Shown: positions 10,270-40,601, counted from the stretch's first letter. The stretch: DNA of 64,000 bases from Bilabrum cf. latius (GCA_965178125.1 OZ237756.1:496001-560000); one strand, 5' to 3'. The notes: a model not told the origin generated them from the letters alone. Translations and numbers: made by a program.

Positions 10270-10586
10270 AAGAAGTATGTGATTCTAATACAATATATGG
10301 GGCTGCAATTACACAGATATGTGTGCATGGGCCGCACTACTACCGCGAACTCGGGCAACTTACCTTCTCCTTGAGATCGGTGACAGAGCAACTGGGATCA
10401 ATGTCTGCACGGTCCACCCCCAGCGCGTGCTTAATTCTTAAAAGAAGGCCTTTACTTTTAGGCATCGTATTATCCGTATTTTGCCGCACTGTATGCGATC
10501 AAGCTCATCTGATATATATCGCAAAGTGCACGCATCGAGCACACCAACGGCAACTGCAACCTCTTTGTGCATTCACGCGAAGAAGC

Positions 10587-11972
10587 ATGCTTTCTGCTGT
10601 TGCAATTCTGTCGATCACGATACTGACCGTAGCCTTGGGCCGGCGTGTCCGTGATTCCTTGCTGAATGTCTCTGAGGTCACGTGGCTGCCGGAAGCAGGG
10701 GCATACACGGATCACAACTCCAGGTTTGTCGGATCGCCCAGTCTTGTGAAGGTCGGTAACCGCTGGCTTGCATCGCACGATTATTTCTTTCATACGCCTG
10801 TGGGGACCGTGAGCGTATTTCAGTCGACGGACGAGAGCGGAGTGGAGTGGGAATTCAGAGCGAATTTGACGGGGATCTACTGGGCTCAGCTGTTCGCCCC
10901 CGATGGACCAAACGGGGACGCATACCTCATTGGACCTGAAGGAGATGAAACTGGCAAAGGCAACCTCCGAATTTCGCGGTGCGCCGCGCCATGCGACGGC
11001 AGCGGTTGGGAGGAGCCGTCCACGCTGATCGCTGGGACAGCTGAGCGGATGTTCCATGCGGCCCCCACGCCGGTCGTGCACCACGGTCCCACGGGACAGC
11101 TGCTCCGATCCATGGAGGTGCACGGCACTGCGGTGCCGGAGGGCGATTTGGGCATCGTCATGCTAGCGGCGAGCGCGGGGTGCAGACCGCTGACAACCCC
11201 GGGCTGCTGGGCCGTATCCGATCCGATCCTGTGGAACTCAACCTGGTTGCAACCGGCCGCAACTGCCGCGGGTCTTCATCATCACCAAGTTTGGTCCGAA
11301 GCAGTGCGCGGCACCCTCGGTTCCGCAGCCGAGACGAGGCAGTGGGAGGAAGCCAACGCGATCGTCGATCCTGAGACAAACAATGCAAGCGTCCTCGTCC
11401 GACTCGACGCTCCCCTCCACGGCTGCACCACCATCGACGGTTGCAACCGGGCCGCACTGCTCAGCTGGACCCCAAGCGCCGCCGCCATCACAAGCACAAG
11501 CGACTCGACCGCAACAACCGCCCTGCCACAAGGGCAGCAACTGTCACCGGATGCCGGCTCTCTTCAGTTCAAGAAGATCGTGTCGATGCCCACGGGCTGC
11601 AACAAGTTCATCGTGAGGGCTGATATTGGCGCCGCGCAATCCGGCAACGGAACCTGGTTCTACGCCCTGTCCAACCCGGTGGACAAGGACGGCATCGCGG
11701 CGGGCACGTGCGGGCAAAGGAACCGAGCTGTGCTCAGCAGGTCTCGGGACCTCGAGAACTGGATCGTGTGCGAGCAGGTGCTCTTCGATGACACTGGGTA
11801 CTCGCCTTCGGACAGCGTGGCGCACACAGGCCTGCAGTACATTGATTTCAGGTTCGACGGGGCGGACATTGTGATGGCGATACGTGCGGGGTACAGGGGC
11901 TCTGTGACGTACCACGATGCTAACAGGCTGCTGGTGAAGCGGCTGAGCAACTACGAGGCCTTGTGTGCGTGA
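10587..11972 (+). CDS. Secreted sialidase-like / BNR-type beta-propeller protein, intronless
   Basis: Hydrophobic N-terminus followed by GSPSLVK..WLASHDYF, VFQSTDESGVEW, YWAQLF, LSRSRDLENW, GLQYIDFRFDGADI and YHDANRL, resembling bacterial exo-alpha-sialidase-like proteins. Stop is TGA. Confidence 0.65.
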   Translation: MLSAVAILSITILTVALGRRVRDSLLNVSEVTWLPEAGAYTDHNSRFVGSPSLVKVGNRWLASHDYFFHTPVGTVSVFQSTDESGVEWEFRANLTGIYWAQLFAPDGPNGDAYLIGPEGDETGKGNLRISRCAAPCDGSGWEEPSTLIAGTAERMFHAAPTPVVHHGPTGQLLRSMEVHGTAVPEGDLGIVMLAASAGCRPLTTPGCWAVSDPILWNSTWLQPAATAAGLHHHQVWSEAVRGTLGSAAETRQWEEANAIVDPETNNASVLVRLDAPLHGCTTIDGCNRAALLSWTPSAAAITSTSDSTATTALPQGQQLSPDAGSLQFKKIVSMPTGCNKFIVRADIGAAQSGNGTWFYALSNPVDKDGIAAGTCGQRNRAVLSRSRDLENWIVCEQVLFDDTGYSPSDSVAHTGLQYIDFRFDGADIVMAIRAGYRGSVTYHDANRLLVKRLSNYEALCA

Positions 11973-12180
11973 GTGTCCGGGATTTGGATCTGATTTGGAT
12001 TGTACTGACCTCACCTGGAGTTTTAATTGGGCTTCCTGGAGTGTCAAAACAATTCAGGATGATGTATGATTCGCTTATCAATTTGAAATTGGATTCACCT
12101 TAAATAAAACTATTCATAGGCTATCTATACCGAAACCTTCTAAGTGATTTCAAAGCGGACTAAAGGGCTACCACGACAGC

Positions 12181-13391
12181 GGGGGGGGACAACAGGTGGT
12201 GGTAGGTACACCAAGCGTTGAGGACGAGGGCTACGCTACGCTCGCCCCTCCTTTAAAGGCATATTTAGCAACTCAAGTGTTTCCCCTATAAACCTAAATG
12301 ATTTCACAGGGGGTTCCCCAAGAACCCCTATAGAACCCCTCTATGTACCCATTTTCAGATATAAAATTTACTCCTACGAAGTAGGGGTAAATTGAAGAAT
12401 TCTAATATTTAACCCCCTTATAAACTCTAACAGCAAAGACAGAGATGTTTTAGTAAAGTAGGAAAAAATGAAGAAATTAACCAAGTGTCCAAAATATCTC
12501 TGTGTTTGCTGTAGGAACGGAAGGATGAATTCCCAAGAGACCAAGAGACCAACCGAGGATTTCCCCAAGTGAACAAGGTATTTTATCAAGAGACCGAGGT
12601 ATGTTCCCAAGCGACAAACCGATAAACCGACCGATGAACCGACCGATGAACCGACCAAGGATTTCCCAAGGATTTCCCAAGGATTTCCCAAGGATTTCCC
12701 AAGGATTTCCCAAGCGACTAAATTGTTCTCCGAAGCAACCAAACCGATTACCCAAGAGATGATACATTATAAGGAAAACGAAAACGTATTTTAAGTCCCT
12801 TTGGAAAAGTCCCCCAAAAATTGAGAGATTTTACAGGTCAATTTTAAGAGACTTAGAAAGAATAAATATATTTTCCAATTAAAATTAAATGTTGTAATTC
12901 CTATGATGCCACCATAAAAATTAAAAGGAAAACGAAAACGTATTTTAAGTCCCTTTCGAAAAGTCCCCAAAAAACTTGTCAATTTTACTAATGCTAACGC
13001 CGAATGGGGTTCGGGGTTGATGTGGCGATGCGTTCGAGACTCGAACACAGGCTCCGGTCTACCAACGCGAGGTTGCAACCGCCAGTGCGACCAGCAGCTT
13101 GCGAGGCATTCCCTCGTCTCCTTCCTTAGGGAAGGGGGCGGGGCAGCGCGGCAGTGGCCGTTCCGGCTCATGCCGTTGTTTTGTTTAGTATTTATGTTGA
13201 TTGAACTGGAGACGAAGTGTGTCGAGTAAGCATCGTTGCATCAAGGTCAATTATAAGAGACTTAGAAAAAATAAATTAAGTTCCCTATTAAAATTAAATG
13301 TTGTAATTCCTATGATGCCACCATAAAAATTAAAAGGAAAATAAAAAACAAATTATAATTGTTTTCCAATTAAAAACACAAAAATTGATTG
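12181..13391 (+). repeat. Left terminal inverted repeat (~956 bp plus a 255-bp insertion)
   Basis: Reverse complement of 28519-29473 apart from the 12989-13243 insertion, about two substitutions seen by eye and a G8 versus C7 terminal run. Confidence 0.95.
12989..13243. mobile_element. GC-rich 255-bp secondary insertion in the left TIR (short copy)
   Basis: Absent from the right TIR, whose empty site reads AATTTTAC|AGGTCAAT. Both arms match 26851-27212. No target-site duplication. Confidence 0.85.
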
Positions 13392-13407
13392 CCTAAAGTG
13401 GAAATGT

Positions 13408-13441
13408 CGTACCTTAAGCATAACTTACGTAGTCTATAGTA
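13408..13441 (+). promoter_or_regulatory. Putative bipartite virophage promoter CGTACCTTAAG...CGTAxTCTATA
   Basis: The same arrangement recurs upstream of the helicase (~14826-14858) and pPolB (~16541-16572). Confidence 0.65.
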
Positions 13442-13452
13442 CAACCACATAA

Positions 13453-13692
13453 ATGGCAAAATCACAAAAGGAACTCGAGAATTACATCTTGGCGACCAAA
13501 GAATGTCTTAAATCAGTCCCGTTTATTACAACACGAGAAGCATACGATATGGCCAAAAAGTACCTTGAATTTACAAAGACTATTATTTGGATTAATTATG
13601 ATGATGACGATGACCTGCTTGCTGACTTTGAGGAAGCTAAAGATTTAAGTCAAATTGTAGTTGAATGGCACGAAAGTACCAAAACCAAATGA
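13453..13692 (+). CDS. Virophage hypothetical protein (79 aa)
   Basis: ATG to TGA ORF preceded by the conserved CGTACCTTAAG...TCTATAG motif. Confidence 0.65.
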   Translation: MAKSQKELENYILATKECLKSVPFITTREAYDMAKKYLEFTKTIIWINYDDDDDLLADFEEAKDLSQIVVEWHESTKTK

Positions 13693-13757
13693 TTTTTTCC
13701 CAAGAATTATTTTCCCTACTTTACAAAAGTAAGGAGAATGATACAACTATATAGCAA

Positions 13758-14813
13758 ATGAGTAGCGCCTTTGAAAGAATATTACAATCCCTAAACATTT
13801 ATCCCAACAGTCGTATTGTAAATTTAATGAAACGACCAAAACGACCCAAAGGAGTAAATCGACCCCACGTAAATGTACCAGAACCTCACCAAGTGGTACA
13901 AATGGATTTATTATCATTACCCCACGACAATAATTATAAATACGCATTAACTGCTATTGATTTACATACAAAGTAGGCCGATGCTGAACCGCTCAAAACC
14001 AAGCGTTAGAACGAAGTATTAAAGGCATCAAAAAAGATTTTCAATCGTGGTAATGTCCAGAAACCGCAGCACCGTTTGGAAATAGATAATGGAAAAGAAT
14101 TTAACGCTTTACAAAGATATTTAGAAGAGACCGATGTATTTGTACGAAGAAATAAAGCAGGTCGCCACCGACAACAGGCATTAGTGGAAAACCTAAATAA
14201 AACGTTGGGAAAAGCCATATTTACCCTATAGAACGTTAATGAGTTAAATACAGGTAATGAAAGCGTAGAATGGGTGGATATGCTTCCAAACATCATTGAA
14301 AACTATAATGAATATCAACTAGAAAAGTATATAGAAGAACCACCTTTACCCCCAGAACACTTCGACTTTACGTAGTGTAAAGGAGACGCTTGTAATATAT
14401 TGGAAGAGGGTACAAGAGTTCGTATACCATTAGAAGAACCCAGAAAGGCTACAAATTTACAGCAAAAATTATCCGGAAATTTTCGTGCTTCAGATTTACG
14501 CTATAATCCAGAAATCAAAACGATAACTAAAGTATTATTAAGACCGAGACAACCACCCTTATATGTTGTGGATTAGGATGATTTAGTGGCTTATCCAAAA
14601 GAGGAATTACAGATTATCGACTTTGATAATGAGGACAATAACCGAGATGCTCAGACAATCTTTCTCCCAAAAAAAATAAAATCCGAGAACGAAACAGAAT
14701 ATCAAATAGAATGGAAAGATTTTCCAGAACCAGAACATTGGACGTGGGAACCAAAGAATAAAATCCAAGAAATTGCTCCTAATTTAATTTTGGAGTGGGA
14801 TATAGAAAATTGA
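13758..14813 (+). CDS. Retroviral-type (rve, DDE) integrase with C-terminal chromodomain (351 aa with TAG=Gln)
   Basis: QMDLL, IDNGKEF and VENLNKTL supply the DDE triad. YQIEWKDFPEPEHWTWEP is a chromodomain motif. Five in-frame TAGs; ends at TGA. Confidence 0.93.
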
Positions 14814-14870
14814 GATGCCCCGTATCGTACCTTAAGGATTATTTTCGTATTCTATAGTACAACAACAAAA

Positions 14871-16533
14871 ATGTCATTCACTCTGCCGACTAAAGCGTAT
14901 TCGTCAAAAAGCCTTATGGACCTATGTAATGCCGGAAAACAAGAGGAATGTATTCAATACCTTAAACAATACTTCTACCGCACCCACGAACAAGGTGGCG
15001 GGGTGTATTTTCTAATAGCATCTGAATTAAATCGGAATAACATAAGTGATGACGAACCCCAGAAACCAGTCTGGTAGTTCCTTACGAATAAAAATATTAC
15101 TGAAAATTACCTGATTGGGGGACACTGTATTTACGCGATTGTGGGCAACAAAAGAGTAAAGACTTGGTCAGCACGAGACTGGTTCTTAAATGAGAATACC
15201 GACGTATTTACGATTGTAAGAAAATTCAATTCACCTACCGTTGATTACTGACAATCAAACAATTAACGTTATGGGTTCACCTATACTTACACGGGAAAAC
15301 TGTGGAAACATAGAGGATTTAACCGAAGACGCAAAAGCAGGCGCGACTATGATTTACGAACATATCCAGAAGGTGTGGACTTCAGAAGACAAAGAATAGT
15401 GTGATTTTGTGATGAAGTGGTTGGCTCACGTTATTGTGGGCGGAAAGAAGTTGGGTACAGCACTATATTTGAAATCTCCACAAGGAACTGGTAAATCGAT
15501 GATTATTACCTTCCTTATGAGAAAACTACTCGGATATACCCTCACACTATAGACGCTTACACACAAGATGCTTCAACCCGACGCCTTCAACTCAATTCTG
15601 GACGGGAAACTATTAGTCAATTTTAATGAAATTCCAAAAGCCTCGCCAACTATTTGGGACGCCATGTAGGCAACACTAAGAAATCTTATTACGGAAAAAC
15701 ACTTTTCCTGTAATGAGAAGTTTGTCAAATCCGAAAGTCGTCCGAATACATTCAATTTAATTATTGATACGAATGATAGTCCAATCAAAATCACCGAGGA
15801 AATCCGTAGATATTGTGTTTTGGATGTGAATACATCTAAGAAAGGAGACAAAGAATACTTTACAACACTAAAACGTTTTACAGAAAATCCAGAAGTGGCT
15901 AAGGCATTTTATATGTTATTGGTTGAAATCTATGATACATCACCAGACTTTACAGGACAATTCGCACCAAAATCAAAGAATTTTTACAAAGGAATTCTTG
16001 ATGGCGCACATCCGGTTTTAAAAATTCTAAAAGAAGAGTGGCTGGACGAAGGCAGAGATTTTAAAATGACAGTCTTGGAATTCCGCAATTATCTAAAGCA
16101 GGAACTGAACGGTAGAGTGAAGAACCTTGGTACACCTATGATTAAAACACTATTGTCAGAGGTAGGTGTTCATTCAACGATGAACAAATAGAGAAAACAA
16201 GAATTTAATGTGAAACACGCAGACTTACTAAAAGGCTTCCAATCTAAATTTTAGGCACTTCGTCATTCTGCTGAGATGGAAAAAGCAAAATCCGAGGTAG
16301 ATGTTCTTCGAGAGTAGATTAGAGAACTACAGAAACAAGTCGCATAGCAGTAGGAAACGATTGAATAGTTGGAATTAGAAAAGGAGATTACACCGACGGA
16401 ACAAGTCCATAAGAAAATCCAGAAACAGCTGAGTGTTGAGAATAGCATCGCTATTCAAAAATGGATAAAAGAGAACCCACCAAAGAACAAAAAAGGAAAA
16501 CTTTCCAAATTCCTCTGTAAAATTGAGAAGTGA
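14871..16533 (+). CDS. Superfamily 3 (D5-like) helicase with a +1 frameshift near 15245
   Basis: Walker A SPQGTGKS, Walker B LLVNFNE, motif C NLIIDTN and IRRY, then a C-terminal coiled coil with several TAGs. The first frame stops at TGA 15249-15251 and the helicase continues in the +1 frame to TGA 16533. Confidence 0.88.
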
Positions 16534-16590
16534 GTGAGTTCGTACCTTAAGAATAATTATCGTATTCTATAATATAATAGATACTATAGA

Positions 16591-18432
16591 ATGCCCGAAA
16601 TCGATTTTACGGAACCCCAAAGAACCAAATTGCGTCTTAATGGGAAACCAATATGGAGTATGCGATTTGAGAGCGAGGACCTTATCACCGTAAAAAATGT
16701 CTTGGAATTTATTCGTGATTACGACGATGGTGGTGAAAATCCGTTTGATGACTTTAAATTTAAGGTGAATATCAATTACCAAGATACAGGTTGGCGAACA
16801 CGAAGCACTTGGATTACTACAGATGATTTAGAAAATCAAGATAGTTTATGGGCGGGCTACGAAGACGACGATGACGACGAATATAGAAAATTGAATTCTT
16901 TTGAACTACTGCTTATTAGAAAGCCAGAACCAGAAGGCGGTGCTGACGAACATAACGATTGTTTATATAACGCTATAAAACAGGCTTTTCCTTTTTCAGT
17001 TGGTCGTAAGGTAAATGTAAAGAACGCAAAAGGCAAATGGAAAACTACTATTAAAAGAATGTCATAGTCCGACCTGAAAGAATTCTTGATAATTGGGCGT
17101 GATGACCCCGTTGATTACAGAAGAATACCAGAGATAGAAGACGAACTAGAAATACGTATTAACGTTGTGGGCGACTTTGAATACACATCTGGAAAAACTC
17201 ATTTTGACCGTCTTCTAACTGTATCATTAACAAATGGGCATTACAAGTATGTTCCCCCCATTAGTTAGAAAGAATTATTTACACCGCCGTCTAAAGAACC
17301 GTGTACGCTAATTACCCGCTTGTATCAATCCGAGAATTCTTATTTACTATTTGATGGAGACCGTGAGTATCAATCAGAAGGCATTACATCAGTTTCCAAG
17401 GATAAATTCATCTTTGAAGTCAAGTCCAAGGAAGAACTAAGAACAAAACACGAAGAACGGATGAAAAATGTAAGGGCATTAGCGAAGGAGACGGGTGGAT
17501 TTATGGATTTATCACGATTTATGTTTAGAACATCCCTATTTGTAAAGTCGTATTTCAGTAAGTTTTCCAAACTTTACCCTGCCGACCCGATTGACCGAAT
17601 GGAAGCACTTTGGATATCAAGAGCATCCGGTGGTGGATTGAATTGGGCAAACAAGGATACTACATTAAAAAACGCATACCAGTACGATATTAACTCATTT
17701 TATCCAAGTATTATGAAGGGTACATTTACATTTCCGGTTAGAAGGGGAACGTTCGTACAATTTAAAGTACCATCCAGTGGGTTCTATCCGTACGGCATTT
17801 TTAGGGTACGTATTGAAAATCTCAATTCTAAATTAGTACAAAAAAGAAAAAACAATTATTATACCCAATATGATATTAACCGAGCGATTGAGACGGGTGC
17901 TTAGGTGTCCCTAATTGAAGACGGTGAAGCCAACGCTTTACTTTACGATGAGACAACAAGGGTGAAGGCAAATGGACTGTTCAAAACGATGATTGAGCGA
18001 TTGTACGGTTATAAAAAATAGGGATTGAAGTGTGCGAAGGAGATACTAAATAATATTTGGGGTTCTCTATGTTAGAAAAACACAATCACAAAAACACTCC
18101 GAGATGGTGATTGTATGAATTTTAGACAATTAAAGAACGCGTATCCTAAAGCATCTGGACGACTTGTATCGGGTATACTATATGACGAAGAGTACGATTA
18201 CAAAACAGCCTACGCAAGAATGGGCCCCTTTCTGACTGGACTTGGACGAAGTAAATTGTCCAAAATGATTGAGCCATATCTTGAAAACATTCACTATGTC
18301 AACACGGATGGTTTCATTAGTGAGAAAGAATTACCTCTAAAGTTATCAACGAACCTTGGGGGTATGAAGTTGGAGCAATCAGGTGAATGTCAAATTATTC
18401 ACAGTAAGAAGAAAATTTTTAGAAAAGATTGA
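16591..18432 (+). CDS. Protein-primed family B DNA polymerase with N-terminal OTU-like region (613 aa with TAG=Gln)
   Basis: Motif A YDINSFYPS, motif B KEILNNIWG and motif C YVNTDGF. ORFs at 16591, 17086, 17320 and 18115 are all in one frame and are joined through TAGs. Confidence 0.92.
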
Positions 18433-18488
18433 CCAAAGCACCGCAGTTTACCGGCGGAACGGCATAAAAGTGTTTAGAAAAGATTGAA

Positions 18489-18761
18489 TTAAATAGTCTG
18501 CTTTTCCTTAAGCTTCTAAATTTCCTATCGCAAACTATCAAGTTCATCCATTATGTTAATTTGTTCCCTTTTTGTGTCTTCCTCTTTTTGAAGCCAATCA
18601 AGGTGTTTTTTTGTTCTACAATGATGTGATTTATTGTACTTCTTATATACGCCTCCACACGAGCATTGTATCTATTCTCCAAGTTTTTCCTTGTTTTTCC
18701 GGTAGTATTCACGGGCATACAGCTTATCCTGTTCTTTTCTTTCTGAATGACTGAGTGTCAT
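18489..18761 (-). CDS. Small zinc-finger protein (90 aa)
   Basis: YAREYYRKNKEK...CSCGGVY..NKSHHCRTKKH. Three in-frame TAGs, TAA stop and an upstream TCTATAG. Confidence 0.75.
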
Positions 18762-18797
18762 TTTTGTATTCTATAGTATTATACTATAGACTTAGAT

Positions 18798-20081
18798 TTA
18801 AGTATCGTAGGCAAATATTTTCCAAGCCTACTTAAGTGCTGTCTTCTTGGATATTCCTTTTTCTCTTAAAATGGACGCCATTTTCATCACTCTTGAACGT
18901 TTGGTTTCACACTGACATTGACCTCCAAATATTTCCAGATACATACCCGATACTGGGTCATTCGTATGCGAATGGATTTCTTTCATAATTGGTTTTCCAA
19001 CTGTTTTAGTTGCTAAATCCCAACCTTCCTTAAAATCTTGTCCAAAATCCCTTTCTGTGTTCTACTTATGTTTTTTCTAATTTTTCATTAAGGCGTTTCT
19101 GACATCTTCCGGTAAATCATTTAAACCTCTCCCAAACCATTTGGAAAAATAACCAGCCACGTCAGTAGCAGCATTAGCCACTCTCTTAGTAAATCCCGAT
19201 ACACTCTTAGCAATACTCTCTACATCCTACATAATAAATTGGTTTAAGGGTGGTGTCAAAAACCCATTTGTGCGCAGAACATCCTAAATGAACTTTTGAC
19301 AATTCAACGAGAAAGCACGGTACTGATAAAAGTTGTATTCTCCAATTTTCTGTAAAGTGGTCTCAAATAATTCCCTAACTGTTTTCTGAGGTTTTCCATT
19401 TATATTTACTTCCATAGTTTGAGTTTTCTTGTTGGTGGAAAATCGTGGGGACAAATTAACCCTCTCATTCTTCTCAAGATAAATCTTTTTTCCACCTCCA
19501 AGGTTCAATTCTAAGGCTAAATGGAAGAAATCATTATATCCGTGTTTATTTTTTAACTTTTTCATTTTCCCAAGGGTAATCCAGTTAAGCAACCGATTAA
19601 TCGCGCCACTAATAGGGGTTCTAATTACTTTCATAGCAATAATTGTCCTATCCCCGTACTGTTGAAGATTTCTCTGGACTTCGTTCGTATTTCCATACAC
19701 TACTCCACCCTTAAGCTGTTGCGCCAGCTAACTGCGCCGAGAGGGGGTGCTTCGCGGACCATCTTTAAGCTGGCTTCGCGGACCATCTTTTAAATACTAA
19801 TGAAGTGTGTTGGATTGTGTAGGTTTCTTCTAGGATTTCTTTTTTGGTTTTCCTTTTGTTCCCACACCATCTTTAAGCTGTTGCGCCAGCTAACTGCGCC
19901 GAGAGGGGGTGCTTCGCACACCATCTTCAAACTTAATTGCTTTTTCAAGGGCCTCTTTAGAATAAGGGAATTCACTTTTCCATGTCCTTGTTGTTTTACT
20001 CTTAGGTTCTTTGACACTAATGTACGTCTTAACAAAACCAGAATTCATTTTTCCGCCACTAAGTGAATAAAAACTATCCAT
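18798..20081 (-). CDS. Protein with permuted papain-fold (PPPDE/LRAT-like) peptidase domain (427 aa)
   Basis: His in FFHLAL precedes Cys in YRAFSLNCQKFI. One frame through TAGs from ATG 20081 to TAA 18798. Confidence 0.7.
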
Positions 20082-20107
20082 TTAGTATAGACTTGTATTT
20101 AAAAAAC

Positions 20108-20725
20108 TCATAGACGAGAACCAAGACCAAATGTTTTACGGACGAATTCCTCCAGTTGCTAAAAGGATGAATAGACACAGTACTAACTCTAATGTAATCC
20201 AGCGATTAAATTCGTTCTTGAGCGTTCCACAGACAATAAGTCCCCCGATTTTTTACCCTCACGGATTTCCTCAAAAAGACTGTGAGAAGGCACACACACA
20301 AAAATTGAACTTTCCTTAAATAAATCTTTCGCTAATTCCAACGAACCAACCATAACTATCAGACGTCTGGATTTCTTCGTGAGCCAATCCGCTTTAATTT
20401 TTTCATACACTAATCTTGATTGGGAATAATAAAAGAGGCGGTGGGTGCTTTCATCACCATCAACCAACATCTTTTCCATCTTTTGCTTTTCCTACCCTGA
20501 AATTTGAGCATTTACACACTCGTCTAAATCAATAATTAGCGTATCCTTATCCACCGCTTCTAGGGAACGACATAACGTAGTTTTACCGCTTCCTTTTGGA
20601 ACAACCACGCACGATTTCTGTTTCTAAGTTCCGTCTTTCGTCCACCAAGAATACAGACACTTGCTTCCTGTATAAGCTAAAGGGGCTAAAGTCCCAGCAA
20701 CCATTACAGCAGTTGATACTGACAT
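20108..20725 (-). CDS. P-loop NTPase / nucleotide-kinase-like protein (205 aa)
   Basis: Walker A VPKGSGKTT and LIIDLD. In-frame TAGs; ends at TGA 20108. Confidence 0.75.
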
Positions 20726-20780
20726 TGTTTTGATATACTATATACCAAGACAAATATTTATTGGTTTACCCTTTTCATAT

Positions 20781-22541
20781 TCACTGCTACAACATTGCGA
20801 GAAGTTGATTGCGAGAAAGAGATTTACCACCTGTTAAGCCCGAGCCTAACTTGGCACCTGTTAAGCCCTTGCCTTTCTTGGTAGTTCTCCTTGGCTTCCT
20901 ACCCATTCCCGCCATTTTAGCGATATCTGCTCCGGTTTCTATTGCTTTTGTAGCATCCCCTAAAAACTTCTTAGCTTTCCCAGACTTAACCCAATCAGCG
21001 GTTTTGTGTGCGAACTTTTTTAAGGCGTGTCTAATCTTTTTCCCAAGACCGCGACCGTGTAGTCCTGATAATTGACTTTCATATACAACGGGTAGTTTAG
21101 AGGCGGACAAAACGTCTGCCCTTGAGATGACACCCTGCTAATACTCGAACTTAGACCCATCAATCAAATTTAATACTCCTTCGTATAATCCAATCACAAC
21201 ACACTACACATTATCGTAGCCCACATCATCATTATTCTTCACTCGTAGGGTTATAGACAGTTGGTTAGACCCGTTGCTACCATTTGTCTAATCCACATCT
21301 AAGCTTAAGTCCTTGGCGGGGTCAATACATAACAGACCACCTGATAGCACCCTATCCCCGAATTTACGCATAGCCCATTCATTATATTGCTATTCAAGTC
21401 CGTTGCTTCTGGATAAGTCCCATAACTGCTGTGGCGATGCGTCGGCGAGTAATCCACTATGGTTATTCATCTCTATACTAATTCCATCAATTGCCATGAA
21501 TGTGTTTCCCTAATCTACTGAAAGGGTTGTAGGTGAGCGACGGGCAAACACAAATAAACGACTTGGAACTGAATTACTAAGCTTAATATTGTTATTGTAA
21601 AGAGTTGCTGTAGTACCTGCGGCAATTGTTGGACTATGACTTTGGGTATACGAAGTCATCTCAAAAATATCATACGAGACCTATTTAGGAAGCACAAATC
21701 CTGTTTTAGGTGTAATCTATTCAAGGTATAGGACTGGTTCTTGGACATCTACCGACTAAATGGTAGCAGTTAAGCCCTATTGTGGAATACGAGACCACAC
21801 GGTTCTACTCAGTTGAGACCAATTAATATTTAAGGAGAGTGTTTGAATTCCGTATATAGCCGTTTGTTCCTATTTACTTTCGTAGTGGAAAGGTGGGCAT
21901 AGTACTGCCTCAGTGCATTCAAAAACAAGAACACGATTTTGAGTTTGACCTGCGGGTACATCAGTATTATCCATTTGATACAAATTGTAAAATCCACTTC
22001 CTCGGGCTGGTTGGTCCTAAAGCACGTCCTCATACGAAGCAAGAGCGTTATTCGTAGACTAACTCATCATCGCGTATGAAGGCACATTATCGCGTCTATA
22101 CACACTATCAAGGCAATTCACACGGTGGACATCATCATCTAGTAAATGGGACAGAGCGTCCATTAGTTCACCGTTGTTCTGGGTATAACGAAGGTTATTA
22201 ATACCTACTGTCTGTGTTGCGATGGAGCGATTAAGTGGATAGGAGCGTGGAGCATCGTAATCTGGTCTAAAGGGTGCTAGACCACCTGCGGTTTGATTAT
22301 TCACGGAAAAGGTGATAGAAAATCGGCATGAGACATAGGCGCGGCGGCACAAACCTACACCTGAAGGCATACTAATATTCCAGTTGACCCCGCTGTTGTA
22401 GTTTCCGGCAGACCCGGAGGGGTTATATTTACGGAAAGTCCGGTTCTCATAACCTTCTTGAACTTCATACGGCTTCGGTTGTACATCTAGTGTTGCGGGT
22501 GATACTTTGACTGGCTGAAGGGCAAAGGTATTCAATGACAT
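20781..22541 (-). CDS. Virophage major capsid protein (586 aa with TAG=Gln)
   Basis: Virophage-MCP-like segments APRSYPL, VPSRLFVFARR, NHSGLLADASPQQLWDLSRSNGL and LCIDPAKDL, plus a basic Gly-rich C-terminal tail. About 13 in-frame TAGs; ends at TGA. Confidence 0.92.
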
Positions 22542-22582
22542 TTTTGTTTTCCTTGTATATTATATATAACGAATAAAATTCT

Positions 22583-22600
22583 ATGGGGTCGCGTCCCCAT
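22583..22600. terminator. GC-rich intergenic hairpin between penton and MCP
   Basis: ATGGGG-TCGCGT-CCCCAT in AT-rich DNA just downstream of the penton stop. Confidence 0.4.
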
Positions 22601-22619
22601 CCGACGAATTATCATTTTT

Positions 22620-23735
22620 TCAAAGTCCTTTCCGTTTCTTAAATAAAAACTTCACACTCACACTTCCGTGGCGTAAATAAAGAGGTCTTAGATTTGAATA
22701 ATTGTCTTTCCAATAAAGATTAAACTAAATCCTATCTACTGAATGTGTATCTAAAAAATCAATTTCGTGGAGAATATGGGGCTAATACTAAAGAACCTAC
22801 TAATTTACTGTTTCTGTATCATCTAATACACAATCCATATCCACTAATAAACTCTCGGTTCCTGAACCTGAATTTTGAACTGTATTAGTGGATTGTCCAT
22901 AGGCGGATTTCTAGGATATTGCCTCACTCCTCACTGGAAGACTTGAAGATGTGAAAACTATTCCGCGAAAAATCTAAAACTACACTAAACTCCCTCGTTC
23001 CTAGGTCATCATTAATCTGTAGTCTCCCGTTGGGTTTCCCTCGAAGTATGCCTAAGGTTCATATTTTCCAACAGAAGAGCCATCATCGAATAAAACATTG
23101 GTTCCTAGGGTTTTGAATAGAATACTGGCGTATAAGTCGTCATCTTGGATATCCATTCGTTCCATAGGAAAACCCGTCATCAGTTCGTTAAGGGCTTCAT
23201 TCAACACTAATTTAAATTTTTGTCCTGAGTTTTCCTCGTCGTAATCGGGATTTGCTACTAAACTGAACTTTCCATCTTTAAAGAGTAAAACCGGAACTGA
23301 TGTAATATCCGCTGATAAAGCATTCTATATGGTTTCGTTGAATAAATCAACAAAATGCTACACGGAATACATATAATAATAAGGAACAAACTACATAGGA
23401 TTGGAAAAAGATGGTTGGTTTTCCCCTGTTAACTAGGGTCTCCACTGAATGCTTGAGGTCCACAAACTTACTCCGTCTTCATCTGTAATGCTTATTCTAT
23501 ACACCGTTTGATTAGGATTTGAAGATGGATTTTTCACTTTATCGGTTTCTATGTGTGGAACCCATAAAGGTATTGAATTGGTGCTTATGGAAAACCGGAA
23601 TACTGACATCGTATAATCACCAACATCCTTATCTAATAATGGCTACTTGCGGGTTTCGCTATAGGTCGCTGGTTGGAAAGTATCTTCGTTATTTCGTATG
23701 TTTGCGGTAATGTAAAATCGGTCTGGAGAACTCAT
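22620..23735 (-). CDS. Virophage minor capsid (penton) protein (371 aa)
   Basis: N-terminal YSETRK(Q)PLL...YTMSVFRFSISTNSIPLWVP and C-terminal YWKD...SVKFLFKK, directly upstream of MCP. Missing from the ORF track because of TAGs. Confidence 0.88.
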
Positions 23736-23791
23736 TTTACTATAGACGTTTATAATTATGGGGTGGGTTTGATTACTTTTCTAAAGTATAA

Positions 23792-24283
23792 TTAAGATGG
23801 TGTAATAAGTGAACCTGACACTAAGGATTTCCAACTAGATGTAGAAGAACTGCCAATCGCCACATAGACATCGTTGTCGCTTCCATTATACACTAAAGCG
23901 CCCTTGAACTTTCGCTCTGCTGACGTATTAATAGGGGTAGAAGCGTCAGCCAATGTAGCTCCAGCAACCTCACTCAGCCCAACAACACCCTCTTGAGAAG
24001 TCTTGAATGAACCAACTAGTGAAATATCGCATCTTTCTCCTTCTTCGCTCATACTGAACTGACAACCAGCAGACGCTCCGTTTTTTCCAAACCGTAGAAC
24101 AGTTTCACCCCACTCCATATAAGGCTCTCCGTCTTTGAATTCAATACTTGGATTGCCTATGACTGCTCCCGTAGAGTTAGTAATTGCGGACACTTTAATT
24201 GCGTCGCTACTCACAACATTACACGTAATAGTTTGAGACATAAGGTCTAGACTGTTCTTAGATAGAAGATTTGAGACTGACAT
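23792..24283 (-). CDS. Virophage hypothetical protein, possibly virion-associated (163 aa)
   Basis: ATG to TAA ORF (MSVSNLLSKN...) in the structural gene cluster with an upstream TATA-like motif. Confidence 0.7.
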   Translation of the reverse strand: MSVSNLLSKNSLDLMSQTITCNVVSSDAIKVSAITNSTGAVIGNPSIEFKDGEPYMEWGETVLRFGKNGASAGCQFSMSEEGERCDISLVGSFKTSQEGVVGLSEVAGATLADASTPINTSAERKFKGALVYNGSDNDVYVAIGSSSTSSWKSLVSGSLITPS

Positions 24284-24348
24284 TTTATAGTATATCCACA
24301 GATATAATTTTTATCAGGTTGCCAAAAGATGTATATAAGAGGTTTTGG

Positions 24349-25530
24349 TCAATCTTTTCCTAAAAGATGTAATAGTTCCATAGCAACCTAATGATGAATA
24401 TTTTTAGTGCTTCCTTTTACTTTCTTGGCTACATTCATTGCTGTATCATAGATAATTCTTTTTCCACCTGTTAATCCTTTCCCCTTTTTTGGTTTTCCAC
24501 TTTCTTCTACAGTCATTGCGCGTGATGGTGGGTCTTCTAAATCAGGCTACTACATTCCATAGGGCGGACTAAACCCCGTAAATCGCTACACAGGTCTAGT
24601 AGCACGTTTTCCAATTCCCTGCTCAATTTCCATCCTACTCGGCATATCATAGTACTCACCAGTTTCTGGGTCCCACGCCCCCGGAGTGCTTCCTTGCGGT
24701 AGTGGTCTTTCATTGCTCGCTGCGGCTAATATGGCATCTAAGTCTTTTGATGTTTTTGACGCATTACTACTTGAACCCTCTTGAAAATGCTAAAACATAT
24801 TTGTCTGCCCCTGTGATGTTCTTTGTGAGAAATTCTTTCCCTATTCTAAATCCCACGCTATTCGTTGTTTTTCAGTTAAGGGTCTGTCTTGTTGTATTCT
24901 TTCTCTGGCTCTTTCCAATAACTATTTATACGCACCCGAAGACCTTTTTGGAAGCTGTACTTGTGTTGGAGCGGAAAACGTGTTTCTTCTTGTTGTTCGA
25001 GCAGGTGTTTGTAAAGATGTTGGCTACTAATCAATTCCCAACATTCCCTACGGTATTCGTTGTCCGGATGCCTCCTATATAACTTTCCCTAATTCTAAGA
25101 GTTGTTTTCTATCCTCAGCTGGAACTCTCTGCAGTCCTTCGTATCCTTTCCTTTGAAACCTCTCTATGTTAACGTATTGACGGGCGAGTTGTTGCTTCAT
25201 TTGTGGAGACATATTGATATTACCAACAAAATCCTTCAATGCTTTCACTGCTGGACTTACATTTTTACCCTCAATAATACCTTTCATTATACCAGATATT
25301 GACTTAGATATGATTTCCTCGTTGCTTTGGTCTGCCTATTTTCTCTACGCTGGAGTTCCATACCTTCCACTTTCTTTTAATCGTTCAATTTTTGCCCTTT
25401 TCCTTATAAAATCACTATATTCTGTTTCTAAATCTACGTCGTCCCTTGCCTGTAAATCTAACATTTTAGCATTGTCCAGTTCCCTTTCTAGGGCTTGCTG
25501 AATAAGAGCATTCACTTTAGCAGTTTTCAT
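24349..25530 (-). CDS. Virophage hypothetical protein, putative core protein (393 aa)
   Basis: Single frame through many TAGs to TGA 24349. Contains KKGKGLTGGK, which is shared with the MCP tail. Confidence 0.75.
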
Positions 25531-25595
25531 TTACTATAAGCTTTTATAAAAAGCTTGACCAAAAAATAAAAAATAAAGTGTTTGTGTATAGTATA

Positions 25596-25835
25596 ATGGA
25601 TATTGATAAGTGGATTATATAGAGAACCAAACAACTCGCGCTATAGAAAGAACAAGACGCTTTAAATAGAGTTAAAAACCATCATATTAAAGTTGGAAAA
25701 GGCCGTAGTAAGCCTAAGCGGAAAGTGAGCGCCAAAATGAAACGCCGCAATAAACTTGTAAAAATGGTGATGTAGTAGACTGGTATGAGTTTACCTCAAG
25801 CAAGTCGGTATATAAGAGAATAGAATATTATTTAA
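25596..25835 (+). CDS. Small basic virophage protein (79 aa)
   Basis: RRNKLVKMVM(Q)(Q)TGMSLPQASRYIRE(Q)N resembles a short helical motif I recognise from virophage proteins. Stop is TAA. Confidence 0.7.
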
Positions 25836-25864
25836 AGAAACTTTTATAACAAGTTTGACCAAAA

Positions 25865-26767
25865 TTATAGAAGGTAAGCCTACCTTTCTCCAATTAAATA
25901 CCTCGGGTAATTCCTATGAACACAAACCCACCGAGAAGGCATTTTTAGGACTTTAGAGATTTCTTGTTTCTCAAGTCCAATATAATTTTTTAGTAAATAC
26001 CTTAGAGAATGTGCGGAAGAACACTAAGGGAATATAACGAACTTATGACTTTCCGCAAGAATAATACGGGTACTTTTATAGTTGGTGGATAAATGACTTG
26101 TGATTAATACTGAAGTATTTGAGTGGCGACCAACCTATAATATTTCATCCTGTAAATGATTGAGGGCTTCCCTTAACTTCTTATCTTTGATTGTATCAAT
26201 ATCATCCAAGATTACTAAGGCGTCCCTTAATTCCTAATGAATATCAATCGGGTTCTCCACCAGTTCCTCATTTAAAATAATCCTTTTCAGTCCTTTCACT
26301 TCATCTAAGACTTTATCCTACTATACTCGTGAAAATAAAATAATTCTCCTGTTTGGAAACATTCTATGATAATTCTTAGCATACTTGGAAACCCAAGTAG
26401 ACTTCCCAGCACCTGATGGTGCGGTGATATATATTACCTCTCTTCCGTTTAAATTTGGTAATGATTGGAATTCACCCTATTTTAATGTAATCTCTTTATG
26501 TTTCTTTTCCTATGCTTTTTCATACAAGTATTTGATGTCTTCGTCTAGGGGTTCGACCTGTTTGATTAAGTGTCGTGCTAATAAATCCATTTTCCTCTGC
26601 GGAAATCGTTTCCCTGTAAGTGATGATACTTGAAAATCCTAAAATGACATACTATCATCTCCAAATTGGTTGTCTGTGTTTTCCGCCGTGTATAAAATAC
26701 GTTTTCCGTGAGTGTCATATGCGATGGGTGTTGATTTTGTAGTTTCCTTCCAAGAAAAATGAGCCAT
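25865..26767 (-). CDS. FtsK/HerA-type genome packaging ATPase (300 aa)
   Basis: Walker A APSGAGKS, Walker B LVILDDID, then L(Q)VGRH, ITSH and SRWVCV. Stop is TAA. Confidence 0.92.
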
Positions 26768-26850
26768 TTTAGTGTATTTACTATATGTTTTTATTTTTTC
26801 TAAAGTGTTTTGTCTTTTTGTTGAAAACTTATTTTGAATGATTGTCTTTT

Positions 26851-27212
26851 TAATGCTAACGCCGAATGGGGTTCGGGGTTGATGTGGCGATGCGTTCGAG
26901 ACTCGAACACAGGCTCCGGTCTACCAACGCGAGGTTGCAACCGCCAGTGCGACCAGCAGCTTGCGAGGCATTCCCTCGTCTCCTTCCTTAGGGAAGGGGG
27001 CGGGGCAGCGCGGCAGTGGCCGTTCCGGCTCATGCCGTTGTTTTGTCCCACCCTCCTCTCCCTGGTTTGGCTGATAGTGGAGCGGACGCGCAACCGACGG
27101 TTCTGGTGCTTTCCAACCGACGTCGGCGCGCGGTCTGCTCAGATTGGCCATGCTTTGCCCATGTCTTGATTGAACTGGAGACGAAGTGTGTCGAGTAAGC
27201 ATCGTTGCATCA
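26851..27212. mobile_element. GC-rich 362-bp secondary insertion (long copy) between the ATPase and protease genes
   Basis: Same arms as 12989-13243 plus a 119-bp hairpin-forming centre. AATGCTA occurs at both junctions. Confidence 0.8.
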
Positions 27213-27318
27213 ATGCTATCCACAAATTCCAAAACGGATTTTGTAGAAATACTTCTACGCTTAAATAGTGGTTAAGAGAATTCATCTCCCCCAATATATG
27301 TTTCTATAATAAATATAT

Positions 27319-27855
27319 ATGGATTATGCTCTTAGCGATAGTGATATTCGTGTTCTCCTCCAAACTCCACCAAATATTAAGGGGTTTCTTCCTACGTCGG
27401 TAAACATCGTTCCATATACAGAATTAGGATAGTACAATAGTATTGATGGATTATTTAGTCGTTGTAATTGTTGTATCATTCTATACCAAGAAGAAATAAA
27501 TTCTGGACACTGGGTGTGCTTATTTAAGCGTAATAAAACAATATACTTCTTTGACAGTTATGGAATTCGTCCTGATAGGCAATAGCACACAATGAGTGAA
27601 AGCGTGCGGAAACGTTTTTATGAAGACCCTGAGTTAATATATTTAATGTATCATTCTCCGTATAAGATTGACTATAACCCATATTAGTTTTAGGCGGATG
27701 GAATGGATATAGCAACCTGCGGGAGACATTGTATAGTTCGTCTTTGGAATAGGGGAAAAAACGCTGATTAGTATAAAAAGTGGGTGGATAAGGTTTGTAA
27801 GAAACATACATTAAATCCTGATGAATTAGTGTATTTATTGACGTGTCATTTATGA
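27319..27855 (+). CDS. Adenain/Ulp1-like capsid maturation cysteine protease (178 aa)
   Basis: GHWVCL (His), YFFDSYG (Asp) and Y(Q)F(Q)ADGMDIATCGRHC (oxyanion Gln and Cys). Stop is TGA. Confidence 0.92.
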
Positions 27856-28134
27856 ACTCCAAAGGTAAAAATGTGAGAAGAACTTTGGGGTTCTTGGTTT
27901 TACTTCGATACCGTGTCGTTTGAAGTATCTAAATTGGCGGTCCGTATCTAAATGATTTAAATGGCTGTAATACCCTATTCTATCGTAAAATTGCTAATAC
28001 CGCCTATCACCAAACGATGTAATATATTCATCATTTTCGTCAAAAACATCATACTTCTTATTCTTGCGTCTTGAGGGTGCTTTAAATAGAAAATTCTCAA
28101 CAACCTTTTCAAAATCGTAGGTATGTAGCTTCAT
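27850..28134 (-). CDS. Small viral protein, DUF5754-like (94 aa)
   Basis: SRRKNKKYDV...FGDRRY(Q)QFYD...HLD..R..YFKRH...PKFFSHFYLW resembles a motif common in giant viruses and virophages. The family name is from memory. Confidence 0.7.
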
Positions 28135-28518
28135 AAGTACTTTATAGTATAGTCTTCTACTTATATCAAAGCCCGAGCTTCTTGTATTCCTTTAGTTTTT
28201 CGTGTAATTTTTTCCAAATACGTGGATTAATTTGCTTGACAATATGCTCTATCATCAACTCCTTTAAAAATGGGTTCATTTACTATAGTGATATAGAATG
28301 GTCTTAATTATCATCTCTTGGGAAATCCTTGGAAAATTAATTTTAATATTCTATAATTTGTTTTTTATTTTCCTTTTAATTTTTATGGTGGCATCATAGG
28401 AATTACAACATTTATTTTTAATCTTTGAAAAAGATATCAAAAGAGCGGAGGGCAAAGCCCGAGCATCTTGGGAAATTAATTTTAATATTTCTTTGTATCC
28501 TATATTGTCAAAATTTTT

Positions 28519-29473
28519 CAATCAATTTTTGTGTTTTTAATTGGAAAACAATTATAATTTGTTTTTTATTTTCCTTTTAATTTTTATGGTGGCATCATAG
28601 GAATTACAACATTTAATTTTAATAGGGAACTTAATTTATTTTTTCTAAGTCTCTTATAATTGACCTGTAAAATTGACAAGTTTTTTGGGGACTTTTCGAA
28701 AGGGACTTAAAATACGTTTTCGTTTTCCTTTTAATTTTTATGGTGGCATCATAGGAATTACAACATTTAATTTTAATTGGAAAATATATTTATTCTTTCT
28801 AAGTCTCTTAAAATTGACCTGTAAAATCTCTCAATTTTTGGGGGACTTTTCCAAAGGGACTTAAAATACGTTTTCGTTTTCCTTATAATGTATCATCTCT
28901 TGGGTAATCGGTTTGGTTGCTTCGGAGAACAATTTAGTCGCTTGGGAAATCCTTGGGAAATCCTTGGGAAATCCTTGGGAAATCCTTGGGAAATCCTTGG
29001 TCGGTTCATCGGTCGGTTCATCGGTCGGTTTATCGGTTTGTCGCTTGGGAACATACCTCGGTCTCTTGATAAAATACCTTGTTCTCTTGGGGAAATCCTC
29101 GGTTGGTCTCTTGGTCTCTTGGGAATTCATCCTTCCGTTCCTACAGCAAACACAGAGATATTTTGGACACTTGGTTAATTTCTTCATTTTTTCCTACTTT
29201 ACTAAAACATCTCTGTCTTTGCTGTTAGAGTTTATAAGGGGGTTAAATATTAGAATTCTTCAATTTACCCCTACTTCGTAGGAGTAAATTTTATATCTGA
29301 AAATGGGTACATAGAGGGGTTCTATAGGGGTTCTTGGGGAACCCCCTGTGAAATCATTTAGGTTTATAGGGGAAACACTTGAGTTGCTAAATATGCCTTT
29401 AAAGGAGGGGCGAGCGTAGCGTAGCCCTCGTCCTAAACGCTTGGTGTACCTACCACCACCTGTTGTCCCCCCC
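28519..29473 (-). repeat. Right terminal inverted repeat (955 bp)
   Basis: Inverted match to 12181-13391. Ends in TGTTGTCCCCCCC followed by the ACAGC duplication. Confidence 0.95.
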
Positions 29474-29671
29474 ACAGCATACTAGTCCTGGTGCCAGGCG
29501 CTGTCCGCTAGACCTGACAGGTGGTGGTTTGAGCTAGCGCCCGAGCCAGGCTGACCGCTACAAGAGGAGGAACTGGAATTTGCGTCTGGAGGGAGTTGTG
29601 GGAGGGAGAGAAAAGCAAGGAAGAGGAACCCATCCGGAATGCGGAGGGAGGCAGGGGCCATCGGTGACACA

Positions 29672-30941
29672 TCACGATGTACCGCCACCAGCTCCGCTGC
29701 TGGCAGCACCACTGCCATCTTCGTGACCTAACGCTTCTGCCACCTCAGCATCAGCGGCCCCTCCTTGAGCTGGTCCGCCCTCTCCGCTTCCACCTTGCTC
29801 TTCTAGGCTGAGGTCAGCAGCGTCCAAGGCGGGTGCATCGCTGGCATTGCTGGCATTGCTGGCATTGCTGGCATCGCTGGCATCGCTGGTCTCTGTGGCG
29901 ACGCTTTCTCTGCGCTGTTCGAGCGCACGGCGGCAGTCGTCAAGGAGCCGATCCATCACACGGCACATGGCGCCATACGCGGACGCATCACCACCCGCGA
30001 GCTCTTCGAAGCCGTCGGGCAGGAACGACTCGGGGTCCTTCAGAATGTGACCCAAGGCCGTATCAGTGTGCCGTGCGTCGATCATGATATCTAACCCGCT
30101 TGATAGCGCCCAATGAAGCGCCTCCGTCCGACCTTCGTGCGCCGGCGCGGGCAGGCCTGGTAGGACCATGTGCTGGAACCACTCGAACCTCCTCCGAACA
30201 GGGAAGACAGCGGGGGTGTGGCTGGCTTCGACCGCGGCCATGAGGGCCCGAGCTCGCGGGAGGCAGACGGAGCTCGGCTCGTCTTGTTCTTCTGACTCCT
30301 TGTCACCGTCTGGATTGTCGTAGGCTGCGGCTTCTTCGACCATGGCCTTCACTTCGTCGTAGTCTCTGAGAAGAGTGGCCACATCTTGTTCGGCTCTAGT
30401 CCACGCTGCGAATCGAGTACACAAGGTCAATGGGTATTTCCGGTGTAAAACGGTTGCCGAAATACTTTGGTCACAAACAAGCGCGGCATCGCGCAAAATG
30501 CAAGCACTTACGCTCCACGGACAATTCAGAGGCTCCATCATCCGGGGCAACTGACCGATACAGCTCCGCAGCTTTGTCTGGCGCATCTACCGGCACTTCC
30601 ACCTGGTACTGACGAGGCTCGCCGATGGCAGGGTTCTTCGCAGGGGCATCAAGGCGGTAGTACTGCGCGCCATCAGCGGCAGTTTTCACAGCGAGACGGC
30701 AGACATCCAGGTTCAGGTCAGGAAGCACGCGGATGAAGTCATCCGCTGTCATTTCCTTGATCAACGACAAGACGTGGGATTCCTCAGGCGGGTCCATCAT
30801 TTGCATTGCTGAAGATCTGGTAGCATCCAGAACCTGCTGTTCGTTGCGATGCGACCGCAGGCTGCTCTTGCTCCGACCTCCCCTTTCCCTGGCGAATACC
30901 GCAGTGGTAAAGCATACGAATGCGACTTTCAAGACTAGCAT
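29672..30941 (-). CDS. Hypothetical host protein; exon structure uncertain
   Basis: Overlapping long ORFs (30471-31109 and 29672-30586) with host-like codon use. Ends at TGA 29672. Confidence 0.45.

Positions 30942-40560: not shown

Positions 40561-40601
<41 letters not shown>

Follow-up and report, generated by a model that had tools for sequence, protein, structure and literature searches.

A provirophage-type element written with TAG as a sense codon in the genome of Bilabrum cf. latius

The stretch of Bilabrum cf. latius DNA analysed here (GCA_965178125.1, OZ237756.1:496001-560000; 64,000 nt in its whole length, hereafter the window, with positions counted from its first letter) carries an AT-rich element of 17.3 kb at 12181-29473 that resembles an integrated virophage and whose genes become legible only when TAG is read as a sense codon. 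The element sits between two convergent host genes, and its GC content ranges from 0.30 to 0.41, against 0.49-0.69 in the surrounding host DNA. The host open reading frame (ORF) on its left (10173-11972, plus strand) stops at 11972, 209 nt from the element, and the one on its right (29672-30586, minus strand) stops at 29672, 199 nt from it. A 5-bp target-site duplication (TSD), ACAGC, is found at 12176-12180 and again at 29474-29478, the two copies abutting termini made of eight G on the left (12181-12188) and seven C on the right (29467-29473): the left junction reads ...CCACG ACAGC GGGGGGGGACAACAGG... and the right junction reads ...CCTGTTGTCCCCCCC ACAGC ATACT.... The chance of an exact 5-nt match at such fixed positions is 1/1024.

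The element is bounded by terminal inverted repeats (TIRs) whose arm identity stops at about 956 nt. The right TIR is uninterrupted (28519-29473, minus strand) and is placed in a 154-nt tandem repeat region (28470-28889), while the left TIR (12181-13391, plus strand), which contains 11-, 12- and 21-nt tandem arrays, consists of the same ~956-nt repeat and a 255-bp insert at 12989-13243. The arms pair as 12182-12988 with 28667-29473 (807 nt) and as 13244-13391 with 28519-28666 (148 nt), and a global alignment made without the left insert showed two substitutions (12220 and 12570) and one extra G in a homopolymer. A sequence-only reading of the same DNA had described an ACAGC duplication around the element, TIRs of ~955 bp with about two substitutions, and an intergenic site about 200 bp from convergent stops at 11972 and 29672, all of which were recovered.

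With the standard genetic code, the longest frame within the element is 211 codons, and with table 11 the longest ORF inside it is 194 aa. Reading TAG as sense raised the number of stop-to-stop frames of at least 150 codons from 6 (longest 211) to 14 (longest 619), the longest ones then measuring 619, 592, 468, 437, 427, 421, 393 and 382 codons, and freeing TAA alone or TGA alone yielded fewer long frames than freeing TAG. The element then contains 15 intact genes with 100 in-frame TAGs in total: 14 ORFs hold 95 of these among 4,493 codons, with no in-frame TAA or TGA, and the fifteenth (25596-25835) contributes five. The 14 ORFs terminate with TGA (nine) or TAA (five), and TAG terminates none of the 15 genes. 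The host flanks also open up in this way, with a right-side frame growing from 1178 to 3037 codons.

Under the standard code, 100 in-frame TAGs could be taken as the nonsense mutations of a decayed relic with broken genes. Such decay is extremely improbable here: TAG is the sole interrupter of these genes, never TAA or TGA, though these are as common or commoner in other frames (in the other two frames of the 14 ORFs, TAA occurs 102 and 163 times, TGA 82 and 160 times, and TAG 88 and 63 times), the element genes show no frameshifts against relatives, and an identical pattern was found in all five metagenomic relatives described below as well as in host genes.

When TAG is read as sense, four genes on the plus strand occupy the left part of the element. 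They encode an integrase with an rve core and a C-terminal chromodomain (13665-14813; 382 aa, six TAGs; PF00665 at 38.3 bits for a cut-off of 32.6, PF00385 at 26.4 bits for a cut-off of 25.1), a 126-aa product of no family (14871-15251; one TAG), a D5/VapE-like superfamily 3 (SF3) helicase (15271-16533; 420 aa, nine TAGs) that matched DUF5906 at E 2.3e-15 and the helicase part of primase-helicase PHROGs, and a protein-primed family B polymerase (pPolB; 16591-18432; phrog_1907 at E 5.4e-13, PF03175 at 25.6 bits, just below the cut-off of 25.8). A block on the minus strand follows, with an ORF of 90 aa (18489-18761; three TAGs, TAA end), an ORF of 427 aa with an internal repeat at 162-nt spacing (18798-20081; nine TAGs, matched at 42% in relatives), an ORF of 205 aa with a P-loop (20108-20725; five TAGs, 56% in relatives), the major capsid protein (MCP) of virophage type (20781-22541; 586 aa, 13 TAGs; PF21915 at E 8.1e-25 and PF22031 at E 1.5e-27, both passing the cut-off), the penton or minor capsid protein of V18/19 type (22620-23735; 371 aa, 15 TAGs; PF21507 at E 1.1e-10, 41.3 bits for a cut-off of 27), an ORF of 163 aa with no TAG and a TAA end (23792-24283), and an ORF of 393 aa (24349-25530; 13 TAGs, 37-38% in relatives). 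Beyond it lie a small ORF of 79 aa on the plus strand (25596-25835; five TAGs), homologous to a 134-aa ORF of the relative L002, and, on the minus strand, a P-loop ATPase presumed to be the packaging ATPase (25865-26767; 300 aa from the Met at 26767, TAA end), which gave generic P-loop matches only, the best being AAA_22 at 26.4 bits for a cut-off of 27. The last two genes encode a putative cysteine protease of clan CE, adenain/Ulp1-like (27319-27855, plus strand; 178 aa, five TAGs), and a 94-aa product with a DUF5754 match (27850-28134, minus strand; one TAG; 27.6 bits for a cut-off of 27.4).

The protease assignment is weaker than the others. Residues H64, D79, Q125 and C134 are invariant in the three sequences compared, and a structural model predicted with low confidence (pLDDT 59) retrieved mostly adenain, Ulp1/SENP, OtDUB/SdeA and poxvirus I7L among the top 48 Foldseek rows, with a best E of 2.6e-3 and TM scores of at most 0.41. 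Pfam, PHROGs and a PDB sequence search returned nothing specific for this product, and WD40 rows were spurious (no passing stretches). Altogether, the seven functions named by the sequence-only reading (MCP, penton, ATPase, protease, rve integrase, SF3 helicase and pPolB) are present once TAG is read as sense; they are unreadable in the standard code, and two of them, the presumed packaging ATPase and the putative protease, score below curated thresholds.

Both capsid proteins point to virophages. Against solved structures, the MCP matched Sputnik V20 at E 2.1e-30 (109 bits) over residues 24-490, in an alignment that passes through the TAG positions, and the penton matched Sputnik alone (3j26_N, E 1.7e-13). 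The match of the MCP to the mavirus MCP was limited to 89 residues (321-409; E 1.3e-7, 34 bits). In a Pfam search with the MCP, virophage MCP families were the only matches, with none to MCPs of Polinton or polinton-like virus type. When 1.84 billion representative sequences were searched with the MCP, the best 150 of 2,280 hits aligned as one family, and no full-length relative exceeded about 31% identity: the closest hits were short pieces of 133-270 aa at 46-70% identity, and the full-length ones lay at ~30% or less. Two of the short pieces stop precisely at a TAG position of the window MCP (...NGLE|QQY). A scan of viral contigs using the MCP pattern gave five matches, none of which was confirmed.

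Sputnik thus provides the nearest solved capsid proteins by sequence, and the element carries both Sputnik-type MCP Pfam domains; it differs in having an rve integrase and a pPolB, neither of which Sputnik is known to possess, and in being integrated with TIRs and a TSD. The earlier proposal that the gene set matches mavirus and the endogenous mavirus-like elements (EMALEs) of Cafeteria therefore stands for gene content (rve integrase, pPolB, TIRs and TSD) and falls for capsid sequence, which is nearer to Sputnik V20. Considering the weak mavirus match and the absence of a full-length relative above ~31% identity, the element appears mavirus-like in gene content only; by these comparisons it is mavirus-like in architecture, yet has no close mavirus relative.

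A compact motif, TATAVTA (often TCTATAGTA), is present at 32 sites on both strands of the element. Fourteen sites fall in the 39-nt windows upstream of genes on the same strand, against an expectation of 0.5, and 12 of 14 genes have at least one; the motif was derived from these same 14 upstream regions. Together with the fifteenth gene (25596-25835), which has a copy 9 nt upstream, this makes 13 of 15 genes. Metagenomic relatives carry TATAVTA upstream of seven of 10 ORFs in L002 (0.28 expected), four of eight in L004 and three of four in L001. TCTA is included in six of 12 TATAVTA instances. In the account of EMALE promoters given by Hackl 2021, genes of mavirus and of type 4 EMALEs have 'TCTA' in AT-rich flanks, which matches the late promoter of CroV (Cafeteria roenbergensis virus), and other EMALE types carry other motifs. 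The motif suggests that the element genes may be transcribed by a giant virus.

An rve integrase, a pPolB, TIRs and TSDs of 5-6 bp are also described as a Polinton hallmark (Hackl 2021), and the integrase and helicase genes lack the common motif, so that a Maverick/Polinton-type self-synthesising transposon or a polinton-like virus, autonomous and with no tie to giant viruses, has to be considered. We find this distinctly unlikely, because the MCP and the penton match virophage-specific Pfam families and Sputnik structures, because the best 150 of the 2,280 MCP hits form a single alignable family, and because a compact motif upstream of 13 of 15 genes corresponds to the pattern reported for virophages with promoters that mimic the late promoter of a giant virus. 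A grouping of the MCP with Polinton-like viruses was the outcome that the sequence-only reading had singled out as speaking against a virophage; the MCP instead falls among virophage MCPs by Pfam, homologue search, structures and the tree described below.

Metagenomes were scanned with the MCP alignment, and 87 pattern matches led to five confirmed loci (L001 to L005). In all five, long frames appear only if TAG is taken as a sense codon, the maximum length rising from 154-294 to 354-646 codons, and their MCPs share 59-60% (L001 to L004) or 44% (L005) identity with the window MCP. In a FastTree phylogeny of 61 MCPs (five recoded ones and, from P0004-P0060, 56 standard-code representatives with 440 aa or more, fragments being excluded), the recoded sequences formed one group with a Shimodaira-Hasegawa-like support of 100 and a stem of 0.86 among standard-code MCPs; this tree is midpoint-rooted and without bootstrap, and its recoded lineages amount to effectively three independent ones. 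L002 shares with the element its helicase (55% identity), pPolB (60% over 611 aa), ATPase (60%), protease (55%), penton (51%) and MCP (59%), as well as four further ORFs, in a different gene order. No integrase was seen within the 13 kb of L002, and its helicase gene is cut by the contig end. Judged from these loci, this is a virophage lineage adapted to a rare code, with five environmental relatives recoded alike. No Pfam family was found for the 381-aa and 134-aa ORFs of L002, among others; the 381-aa ORF (L002 3003-4148, minus strand) is Gly/Asn-rich, has no counterpart in the element of the window, and is possibly a fibre or host-recognition protein.

The residue that TAG encodes was read from pairwise alignments with the five relatives. 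In conserved contexts, TAG faced TAG 132 times, Q 65 times, K 33 times, E 18 times and each other residue at most seven times, these counts not being independent since L001, L002 and L004 are near-identical. The distant MCP relatives (~30% identity) were uninformative on TAG, the aligned residues being G, H, Y or I/V depending on the site. In-frame TAGs are also present in host genes, including those for a P4-ATPase, a PP2C and further ORFs: a TAG in the P4-ATPase exon aligns with the invariant Gln of ELGQIEYIFSDKT in yeast Drs2p, and one in the PP2C domain aligns with Gln in PPM1B and Lys in PPM1A. As for the stops, the ATPase genes of the window and of L002 align to a common end, ...GERQAYLL followed by TAA, and the 13 long frames of L002, some of which are possibly antisense artefacts, end in TAA (eight) or TGA (five). 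TAG makes up 37% of Gln codons in the element (95/254), 26% in L002 (58/226) and ~13% in six long host frames (37/285, possibly including intron sequence).

Alternatively, TAG might stand for another residue, such as Glu or Lys, or act ambiguously as stop or sense depending on context, as the frequency of K and E opposite TAG and the Lys of PPM1A at the PP2C position would allow. This is very unlikely, given that Gln is the top non-TAG partner and is commonly exchanged for K or E, that an invariant Gln of the P4-ATPase aligns with TAG, and that no gene of the element ends in TAG. From these alignments, the code of both element and host is read as TAG for Gln, with TAA and TGA as stops in the element and presumably in the host. 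This is the table 15 pattern of phyllopharyngean ciliates, which likewise read UAG as sense and keep UAA and UGA as stops; the GC content of the present host is high (~0.6), which is not typical of ciliate genomes. Two very long host frames, 39532-44169 (plus strand; 1,545 codons) and 44368-53481 (minus strand; 3,037 codons), contain a PTEN/DSP-like phosphatase, a PP2C domain, low-complexity Gly/Ser/Ala tracts, and 16 and 7 in-frame TAGs respectively, some of which fall in runs such as G-X-G-X-G-X-G.

Four public sequencing runs (X1, X3, X5 and X7) were consulted, exclusively as assembled contigs and unitigs. In X1 and X3, a left-flank unitig of 7,448 nt (depth 22.3 and 42.4) spans 10800-12210 and a right-flank unitig of 2,677 nt (depth 31.3 and 36.7) spans 29444-30700, each running 30 nt into a TIR, and a unitig of X7 likewise enters the right TIR from the host flank. 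The joint expected from an empty site (12180 to 29474) was absent among the contigs of the four runs, which cannot show absence. Element unitigs reached depths of ~513 in X1, 590-620 in X3 and 30 in X5 (flanks 0.1-8); in X1 and X3 this is 14-23 times the depth of the flank unitigs, a ratio that is not a calibrated copy number and that fits a multi-copy family or extra-chromosomal copies. Such depths, and the lack of a contig across the whole element, would also be expected if the genome of a free or episomal virophage had been wrongly joined to host sequence during assembly. We regard this artefact as highly improbable: a perfect 5-bp duplication lies exactly at both TIR ends, flank unitigs from X1 and X3 continue 30 nt into each TIR and one from X7 into the right TIR, and the flanks are convergent gene ends ~200 nt away, as a single intergenic spacer would give.

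The contigs also show how variable the family is. A dominant unitig of 5.7 kb differs from the copy in the window at 47 of 4,672 letters (~1%), lacks 18418-18472, and is identical in X1 and X5, which come from different studies. The 233 records of X3 comprise 136 that are at least 99% alike, 68 at 95-99% and 29 at 90-95%, so that several element variants coexist, and two records of X7 connect the TIR end at 12181 with other sequence, which points to other insertion sites. Compared with the window copy, the dominant variants of X1, X3 and X5 skip or replace 18418-18472, 19928-20105, 20887-20984, 22585-22629 and 28329-28419. The family thus has insertion/deletion variants, of which one affects the polymerase gene at its 3' end and another lies within the internal repeat of the 427-aa ORF.

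The copy in the window has itself been invaded. A GC-rich repeat of 362 bp (26851-27212, plus strand; GC 0.54-0.70) lies between the ATPase and protease genes, and the 255-bp insert of the left TIR (12989-13243, plus strand) is a copy of it that has lost an internal part and contains 12 nt of filler; the parts common to both copies are 100% identical. The 362-bp repeat begins with TAATGC... and ends with ...GCATCA, and no target-site duplication is seen at either site; the empty site of the 255-bp insert can be read exactly from the right TIR. High-depth contigs from X1, X3 and X5 pass straight from 26850 to 27213, which indicates that most element copies do not carry the 362-bp repeat, and in X7 pieces of it occur in other surroundings at depths of 1,000-1,800. 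The repeat has the appearance of host DNA that entered this copy twice, candidates for its nature being a MITE-like (miniature inverted-repeat transposable element) element or the remnant of a recombinase-type retroelement. An Rfam search over 12000-29700 at E<=0.1 gave no match, hence the GC-rich insert corresponds to no known RNA family. EMALEs are likewise invaded by host mobile elements, according to Hackl 2021, and a preprint reports host elements in Halocafeteria virophages too. The insertion of the element had been described as apparently recent, which is plausible; with two secondary insertions and ~1% divergence from the dominant variant, this copy is not pristine.

Our preferred interpretation, to which we give a probability of roughly 80%, is that the element is a complete provirophage of a lineage written in the nuclear code of its host, with UAG for Gln and UAA and UGA as stops (the pattern of NCBI table 15). 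Several points weigh against it. At the junctions, unitigs reach 30 letters into the TIRs where the bridging criterion was 31, an overlap at which a 31-mer graph is expected to break at a repeat, and X1 and X3 are possibly the sample behind the assembly of the window. No suppressor tRNA was found, with no tRNA gene in the window and none in L001 to L005, and host support for TAG as Gln comes from two aligned positions, one of which is Gln or Lys in homologues. The motif is missing upstream of the integrase and helicase genes, and its derivation from the regions first tested leaves the relatives as its independent test. Finally, the ATPase and the protease were assigned at scores under curated thresholds, and the interrupted TIR of this copy could impair its replication.

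If this provirophage interpretation holds, the retroviral-type (rve) integrase would have inserted the element into the spacer between the convergent host genes, leaving the 5-bp duplication. Host ribosomes would translate its genes by means of a host tRNA-Gln that reads UAG; with ~100 in-frame UAGs, the element would not be expressible in a host using the standard code. It would stay silent until infection by a giant virus with late transcription machinery able to recognise TATAVTA/TCTATAGTA, and would then replicate from its TIRs by protein-primed synthesis with pPolB, assemble capsids with the MCP, penton, protease and ATPase, and compete with the giant virus. The potential inducibility and antiviral role put forward by the sequence-only reading are likewise conjectural. 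As the element is tied to cells in which UAG is Gln, its helper virus must, by implication, also work in such cells.

Integrated virophages with TIRs and TSDs are already known, as are code-matched Maverick/Polinton elements in Streblomastix strix. As they are presented in Hackl 2021, mavirus and the EMALEs of Cafeteria burkhardae share with this element an AT-rich integrated genome in a GC-rich protist, long TIRs and a short TSD (mostly 3-5 bp in EMALEs, 5-6 bp in mavirus), an rve integrase, a pPolB, a morphogenesis module, a common promoter motif, many copies and invasion by host elements. The element differs from them by its use of UAG for Gln, by its TATAVTA motif and by an MCP that is weakly mavirus-like and strongly Sputnik V20-like; in the comparisons given by Hackl 2021, every EMALE gave a top hit to mavirus and none was close to Sputnik, which does not apply to the capsid proteins compared here. 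According to PMC10120064 (Bellas et al. 2023), endogenous viral elements (EVEs) of S. strix are likewise integrated, encode capsid proteins and use stop codons reassigned in their host, which is interpreted there as a sign of long association. Those EVEs have MCPs of the Maverick/Polinton group in a host where TAA and TAG both encode Gln, whereas in the present case the MCP is of virophage type, no stop codon other than TAG is reassigned, and the code is also found in free-standing metagenomic relatives. An ochre-suppressor tRNA in one virophage clade has been taken as a hint of host reassignment (PMC6905037). PMC12480563 deals with a plastid code, and the Halocafeteria preprint does not mention codes and gives a host GC of 47%, unlike this window. 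A search of openly accessible literature found no virophage lineage in a reassigned code and no UAG-only case.

Among the candidates for an inducible and heritable protist defence against giant viruses, endogenous virophages are the strongest, and they have been studied in very few hosts. On the provirophage reading, an integrated-virophage system would exist also in a host with a rare UAG-only reassignment, where TAG is heavily used (37% of Gln codons) and would have been so long enough for a diverged clade to form (44-60% MCP identity), a point relevant to the long-standing notion that a changed code shields its bearer from viruses. We further propose, tentatively and at somewhat less than even odds, that this virophage lineage and an undiscovered giant virus are locked to cells with UAG as Gln and that the family is currently active. 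Its activity would be reflected in many near-identical copies, in other insertion sites, and in one dominant variant across the organisms of two studies. In that case, the code change would not have freed this protist lineage from giant viruses and virophages and would now act as a host-range wall, and MCPs of the recoded clade could be used to trace both the hosts and the missing giant virus in the environment. A practical warning also follows: gene callers that use the standard code fragment recoded genes, the MCPs of the relatives being present in the searched database only as pieces of 133-270 aa, with the consequence that such elements are scored as 'degraded' or missed, and alternative codes should be tried lest elements of this type be overlooked.

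A few features of the host neighbourhood may be added. A contig of X7 skips 106 nt at 30406-30511 on the minus strand, with CT..AC ends that correspond to GT..AG on that strand, and this segment is probably intronic, belonging to the host gene that stops at 29672. The spliced contig runs 30 nt into the right TIR, which means that the host transcript may end inside the virophage; X7, inspected across the 30405 to 30512 joint, gave no contig cover on the interior of the element and is neutral as to its expression. A search with a host Clp1 core returned seven hits, the best named ones being ~30-31% identical (oomycete, hemichordate) and one further protein 51%. The host DNA also contains a repeat family of at least 300 nt with three copies that are 87-94% alike (31914-32307, 59906-60299 and 63536-63929), a duplication with a spacing of 3,630 nt near the right end of the window (58590-58889 and 62220-62519) together with a 127-nt inverted match at 4714-4840, and, at 33946-34137, an array of about 5-6 units of a 32-nt tandem repeat.

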